From: an uncultured Candidatus Saccharibacteria bacterium
GTDB lineage: Bacteria; Patescibacteriota; Minisyncoccia; Phycocordibacterales; PALSA-1337
Length of the DNA: 50,415 nt
NCBI GenBank assembly: GCA_964394505.1
Contig: CAYMXR010000002.1
Location: 2,494-52,908 of the forward strand
Reading direction: 5' to 3'
The notes below the pieces were generated by a model. It was given only the letters and a program-made list of their open reading frames with translations, made no database searches and was not told where the DNA came from. A program made the translations under genes and the position numbers. Shown here one piece after another: positions 192 to 27,887 of this stretch. Positions within the stretch are counted from its first letter, which is position 1. Each line of letters begins with the position of its first letter.

Positions 192-263
192 CGCGGGGTA
201 GAGCAGCGGTAGCTCGTCAGGCTCATAACCTGAAGATCGTCGGTTCGATTCCGACCCCCGCAA
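192..263 (+). tRNA. initiator tRNA-fMet (anticodon CAU)
   Basis: Cloverleaf read by eye. Acceptor CGCGGGG/CCCCGCA has the bacterial-initiator C1:A72 mismatch and matches the E. coli tRNA-fMet acceptor as I recall it. D arm GAGC-AGCGGTA-GCTC, anticodon arm TCAGG-CTCATAA-CCTGA, T arm GTCGG-TTCGATT-CCGAC. CCA is not encoded. Confidence 0.9.
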
Positions 264-266
264 CAA

Positions 267-1775: not shown

Positions 1776-3236
1776 TTATAAAAAGTGCTGCTCACCTAAA
1801 AATTCTTTTCCCGCATCAAATAAAACCTGCTCCTCGCCATGTCTAGCAGTGAGCTGAAGACCTATAGGTAAATCGACTCCATCTTTCTTTGAAAATCCAC
1901 AAGGAATAGATATGGCGGGCATACCAGTGAGGTTCGCGGTAACAGTAAAAATATCTTCGAGATACATAGCGACAGGATCAGCAGTTTTCTCTCCTATTTT
2001 GAAGGCAGAAGATGGTGTCGTCGGAGTAGCGATAATATCGACAAGAGCAAATGTTTTGACGAAATCATCGGTAATCATTTTTCTTACTGCATTTGCTCGG
2101 TTGTAATAAGCGTCATAATAGCCAGATGAAAGGACATATGTGCCAAGCAAAATTCTTCTTATAACCTCACGACCAAAACCGGCCCTGCGAGATTCAAAAT
2201 AATCATCAATACCGTCTTTGCCATTTACATGAAGACCATATCTCATACCGTCGAAGCGAGCCATGTTGGAAGAAACTTCGGCCGGCATAATGACATAATA
2301 AACCATAAGAGCATAGGAAATATTTGGCAAAGACACCTCTTTTATCTCATAACCTAGACTCTTGTATTTCTCTAATGACTTTTCGAAAGCAGAGATAACA
2401 TCTTTGTCTATCCCGTCACCAGCAAGAAAATGTTTTGGAACCCCTATAATTGGTTTGGTTTTTATCTTTTTTTCTTTATAAGTATCAATATCGATGGTCG
2501 TTCCGTCTTTTTCATCTTTACCTGAGATCACCTTATAAACAATTTCCGCATCCGATACTGTCTTTGTTATCGGTCCAATCTGGTCAAGAGAAGATCCCAT
2601 GGCCATCACTCCATATCTGGAAACTCGACCATAAGTTGGCTTCAATCCGACGACTCCACAAAAACTGGCCGGTTGGCGAATGGATCCCCCAGTATCTGAA
2701 CCAAGAGAGAAAAGTGCCCCATCCATAGCAACAGATGCGACCGAACCACCCGAAGAACCACCGGCAACTCGAGTCTTATCCAATGGATTCTTAGTCACTC
2801 CAAAAGCAGAATTTTCTGTCGAACCGCCCATAGCAAACTCATCCATATTAGTTCTACCCAAAATAACTGCTCCCTCAGCTTTTAATTTTTCAATAACCGT
2901 AGCGTCATAGGTAGCGTGATAATTTTCCAAGATTTTTGAAGATGAACTGGCAATTTTTCCTTTATTTAAAATGTTATCTTTGATCGCGCACGGGATACCT
3001 GTAAGCAAACTTGCCTTACCTTCTTTGATTCGCACATCGGCCTTTTTTGCCATTTCCAAAACATCATCATAGACTTCAAGATAGGCATTTATATCTTTAT
3101 TTTTTTCATTTATAACTTCCAAATAAGCTTTGGTAAGTTCAACCGCAGTAAAATCACCACGAACCATCGCGTCATGAGCTTTATTTATTGTTAATTCTTT
3201 GAGATTGATTTTCATTTGTTTACCCGGATGTGTCAC
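1776..3236 (-). CDS. gatA: Glu-tRNA(Gln)/Asp-tRNA(Asn) amidotransferase subunit A
   Basis: Amidase signature GGSSGGS and full-length GatA-like sequence, located immediately downstream of gatC. The true start may be the internal Met at MKINLKELT. Confidence 0.93.
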   Translation of the reverse strand: MTHPGKQMKINLKELTINKAHDAMVRGDFTAVELTKAYLEVINEKNKDINAYLEVYDDVLEMAKKADVRIKEGKASLLTGIPCAIKDNILNKGKIASSSSKILENYHATYDATVIEKLKAEGAVILGRTNMDEFAMGGSTENSAFGVTKNPLDKTRVAGGSSGGSVASVAMDGALFSLGSDTGGSIRQPASFCGVVGLKPTYGRVSRYGVMAMGSSLDQIGPITKTVSDAEIVYKVISGKDEKDGTTIDIDTYKEKKIKTKPIIGVPKHFLAGDGIDKDVISAFEKSLEKYKSLGYEIKEVSLPNISYALMVYYVIMPAEVSSNMARFDGMRYGLHVNGKDGIDDYFESRRAGFGREVIRRILLGTYVLSSGYYDAYYNRANAVRKMITDDFVKTFALVDIIATPTTPSSAFKIGEKTADPVAMYLEDIFTVTANLTGMPAISIPCGFSKKDGVDLPIGLQLTARHGEEQVLFDAGKEFLGEQHFL

Positions 3237-22787: not shown

Positions 22788-23084
22788 TTATACCTCTTTT
22801 CGAATCTTCATTTTCCAACTATCAATATTAATAAGGTCAATCTTTCCTTGTTCGTGTTTCTTGATGATATCTTTTAGTCTTGTTGATTCAAATTCTTTAG
22901 CAGTTTCGTCATCACCTTCGTCTATGCCCGAATAATAGAAGACTTTTTCACATTTCCATTTATCCGTGAGATACGCGTAGAGCTTACGCCAGTCAATAAT
23001 AAATCCGAGCAACTTACGAGTAGTACTTGCAGTATTTTGAACATCAACAAATGCATAACGCTTTTTTGATTTGAAAACTGACAT
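22788..23084 (-). CDS. Truncated NYN/LabA-like domain protein (possible gene fragment)
   Basis: N-terminus YAFVDVQNTAST...IDWRKLYAYL resembles the start of NYN domains, but the ORF stops at 98 aa before the distal acidic residues. Confidence 0.3.
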   Translation of the reverse strand: MSVFKSKKRYAFVDVQNTASTTRKLLGFIIDWRKLYAYLTDKWKCEKVFYYSGIDEGDDETAKEFESTRLKDIIKKHEQGKIDLINIDSWKMKIRKEV

Positions 23085-23886: not shown

Positions 23887-23918
23887 AATATGAATTATAC
23901 TATCTTTTTATCTATTTG

Positions 23919-24006
23919 CGGAGACGGAGGGATTCGAACCCTCGAGGCCTTTAAGGGGCCTACATCTTTAGCAAAGATGCTTATTCGACCGCTCTAACAC
24001 GTCTCC
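23919..24006 (-). tRNA. tRNA-Ser (anticodon GCU)
   Basis: Minus strand GGAGACG...CGTCTCC-G. Anticodon arm CATCT-TTGCTAA-AGATG, long variable arm (GGCC...GGCC), T arm GAGGG-TTCGAAT-CCCTC. 88 nt, CCA not encoded. Confidence 0.9.
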
Positions 24007-24098
24007 TTTGGTACGCTACAACCACGAACTTCATGACCTGAGTCGATCGGAAGCGTCGATGGGTGGCGACCAAACCATTGTGGCATACAATAATTAAA

Positions 24099-24128
24099 TT
24101 GACAAAACACTTATTGATTTGTTACAAT
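24099..24128 (+). promoter_or_regulatory. Near-consensus sigma70-type promoter (TTGACA-N18-TACAAT) pointing at the 3' end of the MazF-fusion gene
   Basis: TTGACA at 24099..24104 and TACAAT at 24123..24128. No plus-strand ORF follows. Confidence 0.5.
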
Positions 24129-24134
24129 ACTTGC

Positions 24135-24176
24135 ATAAGTGGCTTCGGCCTCGCGCTCATCCGTAAGGGTGAGCGC
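24135..24176 (+). ncRNA. Candidate small structured RNA (two tetraloop hairpins) downstream of the promoter
   Basis: GGC-UUCG-GCC at 24141..24150, and a perfect 10-bp stem with a GUAA loop at 24153..24176. Both loops are stable tetraloops only on the plus strand. The 3' end is undefined, and it may instead be the terminator of the convergent gene. Confidence 0.3.
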
Positions 24177-24194
24177 AAACAGTTATACCCGAAA

Positions 24195-25055
24195 TTATCC
24201 AAAATTAGTCTTTTTTATAAAATCAACTAATCTGGTAAAAGTCTCCGTATCCAATACACCAATCTTCTTTCTTAACCTTTTTGCATCAATCAATCTTATT
24301 TGCTCAACCATAGCATAAGATTCCTCAACATTATTAAACTGATGACCTAATGAAAATAAGTTCTTACGTTTTTTTGAAGTGGTAAGTGGTACTATTAGAC
24401 ACGTATCCAAACTCAATCTTTTAATTACAGCAACCGGTCTTGTAAATTCCTCCCCTTTGCCATTCTGCTCAAATCCAACATTCTTACCTATTGAAGACCA
24501 CCAAATCTCTCTTTCGTGAAAAAAGACCTTACTATTATCTTTAATCAAATCATCTTTTACCTTATGCCATCTTTTCAATTTATCATCCATCAAATCAATT
24601 TCAATTCGATCAATACCAAATTCTTCAAACTCTTTTTCCCAAAGGATCTGGCAATCAGTAAGCTTCATAAGACGTTCTTCCTTGGTCATATCTCTTATCT
24701 CTTCAATTGTGTATTTATTCTGAAAATCCCTTTCACCAAGCCATTCGGAAATTTCATCCCAAGTTGTATGTTCGTCGTACCTTTCGATTAGACTCCTAAC
24801 AGAGGATTCATCATCTAGATCAAAATTTGCATAATATTTCCCAAATTCTTTATCATAATCAACGTATTTTTCATAACCCATCTCTTTAGCAAATGAAAAT
24901 ACATAATCTCTAATTGCTTTAATATCTTTATTCTGCTCCATATCCCCTTCACAAATAGCATTAGCAATCCAATCTGCCATGTAAACAGAGCGCATAAGAT
25001 CCCAATATTGTTTCTTAGTTATATTTATCTGCATAATAATTAGAGACCAGTCCAT
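24195..25055 (-). CDS. PemK/MazF-family toxin domain fused to a ~165-aa acidic N-terminal domain of unknown function
   Basis: C-terminal 120 aa (EIWWSSIGKNVGFEQNGKGEEFTRPVAVI...IVPLTTSKK...VEQIRLIDAKRLRKKIG) follows the PemK pattern GxExxG..RPxxV..PxTS..QxRxxDxxRL. The N-terminal part is rich in D/E/W with no recognisable family. Confidence 0.7.
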   Translation of the reverse strand: MDWSLIIMQINITKKQYWDLMRSVYMADWIANAICEGDMEQNKDIKAIRDYVFSFAKEMGYEKYVDYDKEFGKYYANFDLDDESSVRSLIERYDEHTTWDEISEWLGERDFQNKYTIEEIRDMTKEERLMKLTDCQILWEKEFEEFGIDRIEIDLMDDKLKRWHKVKDDLIKDNSKVFFHEREIWWSSIGKNVGFEQNGKGEEFTRPVAVIKRLSLDTCLIVPLTTSKKRKNLFSLGHQFNNVEESYAMVEQIRLIDAKRLRKKIGVLDTETFTRLVDFIKKTNFG

Positions 25056-25128
25056 TCTGGCACACTATAAATTAATTATCAAAAAACTAACCTATTGCAC
25101 CCCCTTTCCCAATAGCTATAATTACCCC

Positions 25129-27534
25129 ATGTCCCTCACCCTAGAGACCAAGGTCTCCGAGCACTTCCGAATCACGCCAGCCCAAAAGATGGCTTTGAAG
25201 AAACTTGGTATAGAAAATATCGAAGACCTCCTTTACCATTTCCCTGTTCGCTACGGCGATACCGCAGTGGCAAAAAGTATCGATTCCTTGCAAGCCGGCG
25301 ACAGTGCAGTCATTTTTGGTAAAATTAGTGGACTAAAAGCTAGCAAAGGGTTCAAAACCAAGGTCACTATGGCAGATGGATATGTAGAAGATGAAACTGG
25401 TCGTATTCACTGCGTCTGGTTCAATCAACCATATCTTGCAAAGATGATCCAGGACGAATCTCTAGTGCGGATAGAAGGCAAGGTTAGTGCAAGAAGAAAA
25501 AAGACAACTGTTATCAATCAAAATGACCAATCGCCAGAGATCTATTTTTCCAATCCAAAAGTTGAAGTAGTAAACAGTGTACCCATAGGTGTCGGTGATT
25601 CACTTTTTGGTGACGGTAATGAAGCTCATACCCTCTACCCAGTTTACCCAGAATCTAGAGGTATAAGTTCGAGCTGGATATATCATGCTCTCCAAAAATT
25701 ATTCAAAAATAACATTTTGGAAATGATGAATGACCCTATACCAGAATCTATCCTTACAAAATATCATTTACCAAATATAAAAACCGCTCTCGTCTGGATC
25801 CATACGCCACTTAGGCGCGACGACGCCGTTTCTGCCCGCAAGAGATTTTCTTTTGAAGAAATATTTGTAATCCAGCTCGGTAAAAAACAAGCTCGAAAAA
25901 AATATGAGTCGCACCCCTCATTCCTCATCGAAACACCGATAGAAGAAGTGCAGGAATTCGTAAGACGATTCCCATTCCAAGCCACCGAAGCACAAACAAG
26001 AGCAATAGAGACGATAGTTAGCGAGATGAAAGGTGGACAAGCAATGTCTAGACTACTCGAAGGTGATGTGGGATCTGGCAAGACCGCTGTTGCAGCCGCC
26101 ACCGCCTATGCTGTTATGGTTTCCAAACCAAATAAAAATATGGTGTCGACAAATCCTAAAAATTCCGCCCAAAGCTTAAACCAAAAAAAACTTACAGAAA
26201 ATGAAAGCTTTATTCAAGTTGATCGAACCAATGCAAAACCAATACCAAAACCCAGTGAAAAAACTGTTCGCTCTTCAAATCTACAAATTGCCTATATGTG
26301 CCCAACCGAGATCTTGGCTACTCAACACTTCGAATCTTTCATCCAATATTTTTCATATATGCCTATCCAGATCGGCCTCATCACTGGTTCGGGTTGCAGA
26401 AAATTCCCTTCCAAAGTCAATCCAAAAGGTTGGACCGATATATCCCGAACACAACTTCTAGAATGGGTTTTAAATGGTGAGATAGCCGTTCTTATCGGCA
26501 CTCACGCTCTCATTCAAAAGAGCGTGGTCTTCAAAAATCTCGCTTATGTGATAATAGACGAGCAGCACCGATTTGGGACAGCGCAAAGAGCAAAATTGGT
26601 AAAAAAAAATTTTCCAAATGTTGAAAAGATCGCTCTAGAAAAAAGTCCTAAAATAAAAAATGTAAACAACGATTCAATTATCGAGACACATTCGGCGCCT
26701 CATCTCCTCTCCATGACCGCAACCCCTATTCCCCGCACACTTGCTCTCACAATGTACGGGGACTTGGATCTTACTTTACTCGACCAATCTCCAGCAGGCA
26801 GAAAGCCTATAATTACCGAGCTTGTCTTGCCAGAAAAAAGACAGGAGATATATGAGACGATTCGAGTTGAACTCCGAGCCGGAAGACAGATGTATGTCAT
26901 CTGCCCGAGGATAGATGAACCTGATCCAGACAAAGAAGCGGCGATCATTGCCAAATCGGTAAAAGAAGAGGCTGTAAGACTAAAACGATCGGTCTTCCCT
27001 GAATATGAAATCGGAATTTTGCATAGCAAGATGAAACCAGACGAAAAAGATCGAGTGATGAATGATTTTAAAATTGGAAAAATTAAAATCCTGTGTGCTA
27101 CATCAGTGGTCGAAGTTGGTGTTAATGTGCCGAATGCTACAGTCATCATTATTGAAGGTGCAGAGAGGTTCGGTCTTGCTCAATTGCATCAACTGCGAGG
27201 TCGCGTCATGCGAAGCACATTCCAAGCCTTCTGCTACGCCTTTACCGAAACTACATCTCAAAAATCTATCGAAAGATTGCGAGCTCTCCAAAGTGCCAAG
27301 AACGGTTTTGAACTAGCTGAGCTTGATCTTTCCCAAAGAGGTGCTGGCCAATTGTCCGGTAGTCAACAATGGGGTGTCTCAGACATTGCTATGGAAGCAT
27401 TACAAAACCTGAAGATGGTAGAAGCGGCGCGAGCGGAGGCGAGCATGCTTGTCGAACAAGATATCACTCTATCGGCCTTCCCTATTCTAAAGAAAAAGGT
27501 AGATGAGCACAGTGCGGGATCGCATTTTGAGTGA
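25129..27534 (+). CDS. recG: ATP-dependent DNA helicase RecG (with low-complexity insertions)
   Basis: Wedge/OB N-terminus, GDVGSGKT, PTEILATQH, IIDEQHRFG, MTATPIPRT, QLHQLRGRV. About 100 aa longer than typical RecG. Confidence 0.92.
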   Translation: MSLTLETKVSEHFRITPAQKMALKKLGIENIEDLLYHFPVRYGDTAVAKSIDSLQAGDSAVIFGKISGLKASKGFKTKVTMADGYVEDETGRIHCVWFNQPYLAKMIQDESLVRIEGKVSARRKKTTVINQNDQSPEIYFSNPKVEVVNSVPIGVGDSLFGDGNEAHTLYPVYPESRGISSSWIYHALQKLFKNNILEMMNDPIPESILTKYHLPNIKTALVWIHTPLRRDDAVSARKRFSFEEIFVIQLGKKQARKKYESHPSFLIETPIEEVQEFVRRFPFQATEAQTRAIETIVSEMKGGQAMSRLLEGDVGSGKTAVAAATAYAVMVSKPNKNMVSTNPKNSAQSLNQKKLTENESFIQVDRTNAKPIPKPSEKTVRSSNLQIAYMCPTEILATQHFESFIQYFSYMPIQIGLITGSGCRKFPSKVNPKGWTDISRTQLLEWVLNGEIAVLIGTHALIQKSVVFKNLAYVIIDEQHRFGTAQRAKLVKKNFPNVEKIALEKSPKIKNVNNDSIIETHSAPHLLSMTATPIPRTLALTMYGDLDLTLLDQSPAGRKPIITELVLPEKRQEIYETIRVELRAGRQMYVICPRIDEPDPDKEAAIIAKSVKEEAVRLKRSVFPEYEIGILHSKMKPDEKDRVMNDFKIGKIKILCATSVVEVGVNVPNATVIIIEGAERFGLAQLHQLRGRVMRSTFQAFCYAFTETTSQKSIERLRALQSAKNGFELAELDLSQRGAGQLSGSQQWGVSDIAMEALQNLKMVEAARAEASMLVEQDITLSAFPILKKKVDEHSAGSHFE

Positions 27535-27767: not shown

Positions 27768-27815
27768 ATTATTATCCTAGCATAGGAATATGGTCGAATC
27801 TAGCAATATTTTTTG

Positions 27816-27887
27816 TCCGCCCTCCTGGACTTGAACCAGGAACCGATCGAGTATAAGTCGATTGCTCTACCATTGAGCTAAGGGCGG
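27816..27887 (-). tRNA. tRNA-Ile (anticodon UAU)
   Basis: Minus strand CCGCCCT-TA-GCTC-AATGGTA-GAGC-A-ATCGA-CTTATAC-TCGAT-CGGTT-CCTGG-TTCAAGT-CCAGG-AGGGCGG-A. The 7-nt anticodon loop has UAU at 34-36. CCA not encoded. Confidence 0.8.

Follow-up and report, generated by a model that had tools for sequence, protein, structure and literature searches.

A gene for a MazF/PemK-family endoribonuclease and, tail to tail with it on the opposite strand, a predicted small RNA gene of ~50 nt lie together in a 50,415-nt stretch of DNA (hereafter the window; contig CAYMXR010000002.1, positions 2,494 to 52,908, assembly GCA_964394505.1) from an uncultured “Candidatus Saccharibacteria” bacterium. Comparison with related loci indicates that what is visible in the window as a promoter and two hairpins is a conserved small RNA gene accompanying a MazF subfamily in well over 100 genomes. 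This RNA gene is conserved and its stems covary; in Patescibacteria and a few phyla besides, it is inherited with the MazF subfamily. On balance we favor the view that the locus is a two-gene module in which the convergent RNA acts as antitoxin or negative regulator of the RNase, a role that we infer from the family-wide lack of a protein antitoxin together with the tail-to-tail arrangement; the RNA would then probably stand in for the missing protein. The pair is absent from Rfam and we found no published description of it. In its presumed function it would resemble a toxin-antitoxin system, with a toxin family of type II and a partner made of RNA. A preliminary description of the window, made from the sequence without database searches, had offered two hypotheses, one taking the convergent RNA for an antisense or RNA antitoxin and the other taking an acidic domain fused to the nuclease for an antitoxin in cis, and overall it is partly supported.

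The convergent small RNA gene and its conservation

The promoter of the small RNA (Table 1) matches 11 of 12 consensus positions and is the best site within 3 kb; weaker promoter-like matches in that region were not enriched (12 seen, against 9.1 expected in shuffled sequences). Transcription is predicted to start at about A24135 with the leader AUAAGU, followed by hairpin 1 (24141-24150, C(UUCG)G), the linker UC, hairpin 2 (24153-24176, 10 bp, GUAA loop) and AAACAG, with hairpin 2 ending 18 nt short of the stop codon of the nuclease gene. Both the near-consensus plus-strand promoter and the two plus-strand hairpins with UUCG and GUAA loops had been picked out in the preliminary description, and both were recovered here, the promoter in a position that proved to be conserved. 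One G-U pair in hairpin 2 is a C-A mismatch on the gene strand. The hairpin pair has a fold energy of -24.7 kcal/mol (z -2.85; 1 of 200 shuffles was equally stable), and, run with filters off, a covariance model gives exactly one match in the whole window (24134-24184, E 0.0013). Within the window alone the evidence for an RNA gene is modest; the comparative evidence puts the gene far beyond chance.

That covariance model, built from five sequences in place of a loose regular-expression scan that had been too permissive, located the element at 78 of the 83 genome loci carrying the gene, each time on the convergent strand, with 4 more visible by eye. It also found the element at most metagenome loci, always on the convergent strand, and at none of the loci carrying only the N-terminal domain. 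The RNA element was present at every fused (two-domain) homologue examined, in differing neighborhoods (including loci L006 and L086 to L092), and it also lay tail to tail 3' of almost every standalone MazF-like gene. At L006, for example, which encodes a 68%-identical fusion protein in another neighborhood (mreB downstream, no tRNA), the same RNA arrangement follows the stop codon: the opposite strand reads TTGACT, 16 nt, TATACT, then GGCUUCGGCC, then a 10-bp stem that differs from the window stem by compensatory changes and carries the loop GCAA instead of GUAA. Compensatory changes relative to the window RNA were seen across L006, L086, L088 and L092, and the fused loci L086 to L092 contributed further compensatory stem variants.

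Across loci, the consensus on the convergent strand consists of a TTGAC(T/A) -35 box, a 16- to 17-nt spacer and a -10 box that is often TG-extended, and then, ~12 to 13 nt past the -10 box, of hairpin 1 in the form GGC(C)-loop-(G)GCC with the loops UUCG, AUUA, ACUA or GUAA. The linker that follows is an invariant CGAG in one form of the element (variant B) and CUCG in the other (variant A, to which the window belongs); hairpin 2 is GC-rich, with a GNRA loop in about two-thirds of cases, and is followed by a U-run in variant B and by AAACAG in variant A. Both promoter hexamers match at 4 or more of 6 positions in 72 of 88 elements, the -35 box is TTGACT or TTGACA in 64 of them, and the -10 box ends 12 to 13 nt ahead of hairpin 1 in 78. 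From this fixed distance, a leader of 5 to 6 nt beginning at the A of ACAAAU is predicted. At its other end, the RNA model lies directly against the stop codon of the toxin gene or overlaps it (median gap, -3 nt), and at ~15 loci the open reading frame (ORF) runs at least 20 nt into the RNA gene. At eight loci (L018, L028, L034, L055, L056, L061, L064 and L084) the toxin ORF was seen to lack the usual stop and to read on, for tens of codons, across the strand complementary to the RNA gene.

Covariation was evident in both stems in homologous loci, where the preliminary description had advised looking for it. In an independent MAFFT alignment, hairpin 1 was 99.3% paired with 8 double-change cells, a result that 0 of 500 shuffles reached. 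In the model-fitted alignment, 98.9% of cells were paired and 11 of 12 pairs showed changes on both sides (165 cells; 0 of 500 shuffles as high), values that lean toward structure by construction because that alignment was fitted to the model.

A competing account, in which the hairpins do no more than terminate transcription of the minus-strand gene and the promoter opposite arose by chance, would suit their position just past the stop codon and the lack of enrichment of promoter-like matches in this AT-rich region. The comparative data contradict it. The gene strand has no U-run, whereas the GNRA and UUCG loops, the G-U pairs and the U-runs of variant B all occur on the convergent strand only, which was also the more stable one in 31 of 39 elements. 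The -35 and -10 boxes keep their fixed distance in 72 to 78 of 88 elements, and the sequences of hairpin 1 and the linker are conserved across phyla. We regard a terminator without an RNA gene as very improbable.

A search in the reverse direction, starting from the RNA, led back to the same protein. Scanning one genome per species for the pattern TACAAATGGCC-N4-5-GGCC-N2-3-CGAG gave 30 loci, 5 of which were rejected as chance matches: they fall within GC-rich ORFs and have neither a promoter nor a second hairpin. All but two of the 25 true elements had a convergent MazF-like ORF ending 20 to 47 nt away (113 nt in one case), and the remaining two comprised one at a contig edge and one orphan beside an NYN gene. 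Together, the gene-first and RNA-first results make the link between RNA and protein close to obligate both ways. The RNA gene that the preliminary description had glimpsed is strongly supported (78 of 83 loci, 23 of 25 RNA-first hits, covariation in 11 of 12 pairs, and strand-specific loops, G-U pairs and U-runs), and its antitoxin role is the part that stays an expectation. Separately, L083 (4528-4582), L034 (5711-5771) and L104 (5373-5430) were observed to carry additional or orphan copies of the MazF-type RNA without a MazF-like ORF next to them; the copy in L104 lies upstream of an NYN gene.

The hosts are mainly Saccharibacteria, Parcubacteria/Paceibacteria, Peregrinibacteria and their relatives, and include one Chloroflexota metagenome-assembled genome (MAG). 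The complete module was also identified in the cultured methanotroph Methylocystis suflitae NLS-7 (L048, 4002-4470), as a 130-aa gene plus convergent RNA with a TTGCAC/TATAAT promoter, which makes for an experimentally testable host. Tandem duplicates of the gene-plus-RNA unit occur in L016 and L185. The promoters of the RNA are nearer to consensus than those of the toxin (9.5 versus 8.0 of 12 positions, in searched windows of unequal size). For 22 of 85 standalone toxin genes, the best -10 box falls only 4 to 12 nt before the start codon (L053, L047, L046, L049, L030, L022, L033, L072 and others), which suggests leaderless toxin mRNAs. In the window, the candidate toxin promoter (Table 1) would give a leader of ~13 nt.

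The MazF/PemK domain and its acidic fusion partner

The C-terminal part of the two-domain protein appears to be an active MazF/PemK-family endoribonuclease domain; the preliminary description had already read the PemK/MazF pattern in its sequence. PF02452 (PemK_toxin) matches residues 183 to 278 in the numbering of the 286-aa ORF (E 7.3e-11; 42.7 bits against a curated cut-off of 23.1), the sequence match in PDB is EndoA/YdcE, and the AlphaFold model of this part superposes on the MazF structures 1ne8, 4mdx, 4mzm and 5hjz from B. subtilis, S. aureus and M. tuberculosis (Foldseek E ~1e-6; target template-modeling score, 0.70 to 0.75). Arg199 (in TRPV) and Thr218/219 (in PLTTS) are present, and RPV and PLT(T/S) are kept in the family consensus; by motif, we take these residues to be the equivalents of the catalytic pair Arg25/Thr48 of B. 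subtilis MazF. The domain has an isoelectric point (pI) of 9.7 and includes an additional, family-specific N-terminal helix. NCBIfam and PADLOC had no match to any part of the ORF. The ORF is present with 286 aa as first described, counted from an in-frame upstream ATG at 25055; translation probably begins at codon 8 instead (MQINIT.., 25034), for a protein of 279 aa, since this is where all homologues and the gene call in the database start. Two other domain combinations were encountered among relatives: a MazF-like domain fused to HEPN_AbiU2 (L058, 2296-3297, 334 aa) and, in one MAG, a MazF-like domain in a single 468-aa ORF with PheS domains (L042, 2987-4390), which may be an assembly or read-through artefact.

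The N-terminal domain (N-domain) and the MazF domain appear to be evolutionarily separate parts. Among 5.8 billion proteins searched, 13 were full-length relatives (~280 aa, 47 to 71% identical; Patescibacteria, Paceibacterota, Taylorbacteria) and ~18 proteins of ~160 aa matched the N-terminal half alone; a genome scan added one full-length homologue, one N-domain-only locus and >70 loci encoding the C-terminal part alone as a standalone protein of ~130 aa. The closest standalone relative (L208, 72% identical) begins MDENLKKWHMV, and its start aligns with Met149 of the window protein (..IDL-MDDKLKRWHKV..); the N-domain was therefore joined, in frame, to what had been the start codon of a standalone gene. 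In L209, the N-domain has been shortened again, leaving a remnant of its last helix. Met149 could also act as an internal start, yielding an N-domain-free toxin from the same mRNA.

The N-domain itself was rightly described at the outset as acidic and unrecognizable. It has a pI of 4.46, a net charge of -15 and 5 Trp per 143 aa, and searches of Pfam, NCBIfam, PADLOC and PHROGs all returned no match. Its AlphaFold model is mostly helical with one beta-hairpin (predicted local distance difference test [pLDDT] score, 84.5), and fold searches of PDB and BFVD gave nothing better than E ~1. A DNA mimic like ArdA or Ocr, considered because of the acidity, was rejected, as no such match appeared in those fold searches; the conserved positions (W, Y, N, C, D and R) are more suggestive of a specific site than of acidic mimicry in general.

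The N-domain family is large (1540 representative clusters at E ≤ 1e-3 and 914 at E ≤ 1e-10), and its members are mostly standalone proteins of 145 to 165 aa, with occasional fusions to TPR, winged-helix and SEC-C modules. In five independent contexts (L001, L003, L005, L210 and L213) the standalone gene was part of a type I restriction-modification operon, and in one (L217) it was part of a type III restriction-modification operon, usually directly 3' of an NYN, DUF3800, Bro-N or hsdM gene; in another lineage (L007 and L130 to L133), the standalone gene comes right after a Fic gene, beside an HTH-Panacea antitoxin. In the two-domain protein the N-domain is an addition peculiar to one lineage; most likely it serves in regulation or sensing and was taken from such restriction-modification-linked accessory cassettes. 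As an unannotated family of at least 900 clusters (E ≤ 1e-10) found inside restriction-modification operons, it offers a lead for defence biology.

The hypothesis that the N-domain is instead an antitoxin in cis, occupying the basic RNA-binding groove of the MazF domain and leaving the RNA some other role, draws on the opposed charges of the two domains, on the standalone N-domain genes that directly follow toxin-like or nuclease genes (Fic, NYN and DUF3800) and on the free toxin that Met149 could provide. It would be compatible with an RNA antitoxin, yet several observations make it unlikely. The RNA is kept in every fusion, and the N-domain therefore did not replace it; standalone MazF relatives manage without an N-domain; and among ~200 fetched MazF-like loci (with ~150 standalone genes), none had an unfused N-domain gene adjoining the MazF-like gene. 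The single-chain AlphaFold model of the full-length protein showed good individual domains but no confident packing between them (predicted template-modeling score, 0.45; linker pLDDT, ~55), and the conserved N-domain residues, as said, resemble a specific site. This part of the preliminary description has thus found no direct support.

Candidate roles for the RNA partner

Our preference for an antitoxin made of RNA begins with the lack of one made of protein. The preliminary description had correctly noted that no antitoxin ORF lies upstream; its explanation, the divergence from recG, turned out to be incidental. In the window, recG (RecG_wedge, DEAD and Helicase_C domains) begins at 25129 on the opposite strand, so that no gene is co-transcribed upstream of the two-domain gene, but the whole subfamily is without such an antitoxin: no conserved small ORF was present upstream of the toxin gene across 86 loci, where the only small-ORF clusters came from near-duplicate loci and lay inside the N-domain coding region. 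A hidden protein antitoxin was rejected on these grounds. Known RNA classes did not account for the element either; Rfam 15, which includes the pemK motif, had nothing in 24007-24260 at E ≤ 10, and at gathering score the element drew no match either in the window or in 20 related loci. Literature on solo MazF, MazF RNA antitoxins, the pemK motif and Candidate Phyla Radiation RNAs yielded no description of a MazF-family toxin paired with such an RNA.

In the module as we picture it, gene 1 (minus strand) would encode a MazF/PemK RNase that gained its acidic 148-aa domain by in-frame fusion at the ancestral start, and gene 2 (plus strand) would give rise, from its own near-consensus promoter, to an RNA of ~50 nt in which a 5- to 6-nt leader is followed by two GC hairpins, the first short and the second long, separated by a short linker; the long one would end beside the toxin stop codon. 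The RNA would restrain the RNase by one of two routes: (i) direct binding to the protein, as type III antitoxins do, or (ii) pairing with the fully complementary 3' end of the toxin mRNA, like 3'-overlapping type I antitoxins. The first is favored by the retention of the ACAAAU leader, hairpin 1 and CGAG across phyla while the proteins are only ~35% identical, since purely cis-antisense action would not need such conservation. The second is favored by the tail-to-tail overlap, with the ORF reaching at least 20 nt into the RNA gene at ~15 loci, and by the recurrence of the layout with unrelated RNAs beside NYN and DUF3800 genes.

Comparison with known systems places the pair between established types. 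Like type II MazEF/PemIK (Kid-Kis), it has a toxin domain that is PemK/MazF by sequence and fold, with conserved catalytic Arg/Thr; unlike them, the subfamily has no MazE/PemI-type antitoxin gene and carries an extra N-terminal helix and, here, the 148-aa N-domain and a convergent small-RNA partner. Type I systems include some with convergent antisense RNAs that overlap the toxin at its 3' end (txpA/RatA and bsrG/SR4 of Bacillus subtilis) and some with enzyme toxins (SymE/SymR and RalR/RalA), but most type I toxins are small membrane peptides, and the RNAs are 100 to 220 nt long and poorly conserved in sequence. The module resembles txpA/RatA and bsrG/SR4 in its convergent layout, with an RNA gene that may overlap the 3' end of the toxin transcript, and in an RNA promoter predicted to be stronger than that of the toxin; it differs in that its toxin is a soluble RNase of 130 to 280 aa, not a small hydrophobic peptide, and its RNA is ~50 nt with motifs conserved across phyla.

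In type III systems (ToxIN, CptIN and TenpIN), the antitoxins consist of tandem repeats that precede the toxin gene in the same orientation, with a terminator between, and are processed by the toxin (PMC5086642). These resemble the present pair in combining an endoribonuclease of MazF/Kid-like class with a dedicated structured RNA, in the co-evolution of toxin and RNA and, possibly, in a direct RNA-protein interaction. Unlike theirs, the RNA here is a single unit without repeats, downstream, convergent and driven by its own promoter (tandem repeats in 23900-25400 were limited to two 7-nt duplications inside the ORF), and the toxin is PemK rather than ToxN, CptN or TenpN. Another RNA partner outside the three classical type III families is RCd22 of Clostridioides difficile, an adjacent structured non-coding RNA that neutralizes the RNA-targeting toxin AbiF through direct binding (PMC12373285); that system differs in its HEPN (Abi_2) toxin, its abiF-motif RNA family and its gene arrangement.

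Several points weigh against the proposed antitoxin. Pairing in trans of the RNA with the 5' region of the toxin gene was rejected, as cognate pairs were no better than non-cognate ones (p 0.30) and no cognate-specific complementarity was seen. The variant-A RNA of the window lacks a U-run past hairpin 2 that would mark its 3' end, and it may extend antisense into the last toxin codons. The construction of the model-fitted alignment has been mentioned, and most of the genomes are uncultured MAGs. Lastly, many copies are chromosomal and partly syntenic, and these could encode a housekeeping RNase with an RNA cofactor or substrate instead of a toxin.

This last point leads to an alternative in which the RNA serves a non-toxic RNase as cofactor, substrate, decoy or positive regulator. 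The strict linkage of protein and RNA and the conservation of single-stranded motifs would fit any stable RNA-protein partnership, and the fused gene is chromosomal and syntenic beside DUF5652-tyrS in several genomes. Nor was the module found in plasmid and viral collections: on viral contigs the RNA motif gave five matches only, all chance hits in GC-rich ORFs, and the protein had no plasmid homologue at E ≤ 1e-8, on which basis a phage or plasmid origin was rejected. There is also a precedent in the E. coli antisense RNA aMEF, poorly conserved, which stimulates mazEF expression (PMC8749433). Against this alternative stand the retained catalytic residues of the toxin family, the tandem duplication in L016 and L185 and a patchy distribution across phyla (including Methylocystis and Chloroflexota) of the kind typical of mobile toxin-antitoxin or defence modules, as well as the relative fused to the abortive-infection domain AbiU2, which we count as a defence link for the antitoxin. 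On this evidence a non-toxic partnership seems rather doubtful, a shade more so than the N-domain antitoxin.

A broader proposal, which we advance tentatively and hold to be possible rather than probable, is that of a widespread, undescribed toxin-antitoxin or defence class in which a MazF RNase would be neutralized by a dedicated single-unit structured RNA of ~50 nt, convergent, driven by a strong promoter and binding the protein directly, with the design shared by NYN and DUF3800 nucleases of restriction-modification operons and the N-domain serving as a shared sensor or adaptor. Solo toxins are common in genome surveys and unexplained, and small-RNA control has been remarked upon as a possibility (PMC2701414). 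For one large group of such partnerless toxins, a MazF subfamily that is abundant in the reduced genomes of Patescibacteria and almost always has a small structured RNA gene beside it, the RNA would be a concrete and testable answer. If it is an antitoxin, a classical type II toxin crosses the boundary between types I, II and III, the RNA constitutes a new family, and hundreds of annotations as “type II PemK/MazF toxin” need the partner added.

Gene neighborhood and related convergent elements

Table 1. Coordinates of features in the window
Feature	Position	Strand	Basis
Small-RNA promoter (-35 TTGACA, 24099-24104; 18-nt spacer; TG; -10 TACAAT, 24123-24128)	24099..24128	+	Consensus scan, conserved position
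Predicted small RNA gene, variant A	24135..24184	+	Fold, covariance-model match, compensatory changes
Two-domain ORF, 286 aa	24195..25055	-	ORF list
Two-domain coding sequence, 279 aa from homologue-shared start	24198..25034	-	ORF list, homologue starts, gene-call starts
TAA stop of two-domain gene	24195-24197	-	
MazF/PemK-type endoribonuclease unit, residues 149-279	24198..24590	-	Pfam, PDB sequence match, Foldseek, motifs
Internal ATG, Met149, fusion junction	24588..24590	-	Alignment with L208 start
Acidic N-domain, residues 1-148	24591..25034	-	Library, fold and charge analyses
Candidate toxin-gene promoter (TTGATA + 17 nt + CAGAAT, TG)	25054..25082	-	Consensus scan alone, 9/12 positions (weak evidence)
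tRNA-Met	192-264	+	
tRNA-Ile, anticodon UAU	27815-27887	-	
tmRNA, 79 bits	32515-32933	-	

In the window, the toxin gene lies between recG and tRNA-Ser(GCU), beyond which follow a 194-aa ORF, an NYN-like fragment, DUF5652 and tyrS. DUF5652-tyrS is also found downstream of related fused genes in several genomes, which makes the fusion a chromosomal gene, partly syntenic, that belongs to one Paceibacteria clade. A 98-aa ORF near the toxin locus (22788-23084, minus strand) had no Pfam match but is similar in sequence to the L092 NYN protein over the N-terminal half of the latter (pairwise E 4e-5); it may be the remnant of an NYN gene.

NYN and DUF3800 genes in restriction-modification operons were themselves seen to be faced, tail to tail on the opposite strand, by a strong promoter, a hairpin and a U-run terminator (L003, ~2892-3025; L210, 4890-5000; L213, 4777-5000), and such sites also occur beside the fused gene in L090 (2803-2870) and L092 (~633-700). 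Their promoters include TTGACT/A, 17 nt and TATACT, TATATT, TATAGT or TAGTAT, and the hairpin CCCGAGGU(U)AUUCGGG is common to L003 and L210. They look like further convergent small-RNA genes whose sequences are unrelated to that of the MazF-linked RNA.

The GC-rich segment at 24007-24098, guessed by eye to be a signal recognition particle RNA, was ruled out as such, Rfam giving no match even at E ≤ 10. Within 24007-24105 there is a minus-strand promoter-like sequence (TTGTCA, 17 nt, CACAAT, with TG), which shares its -35 region, back to back, with the small-RNA promoter and which would put a GC-rich, strongly folded 5' leader of ~64 nt on tRNA-Ser(GCU) (23918-24006).

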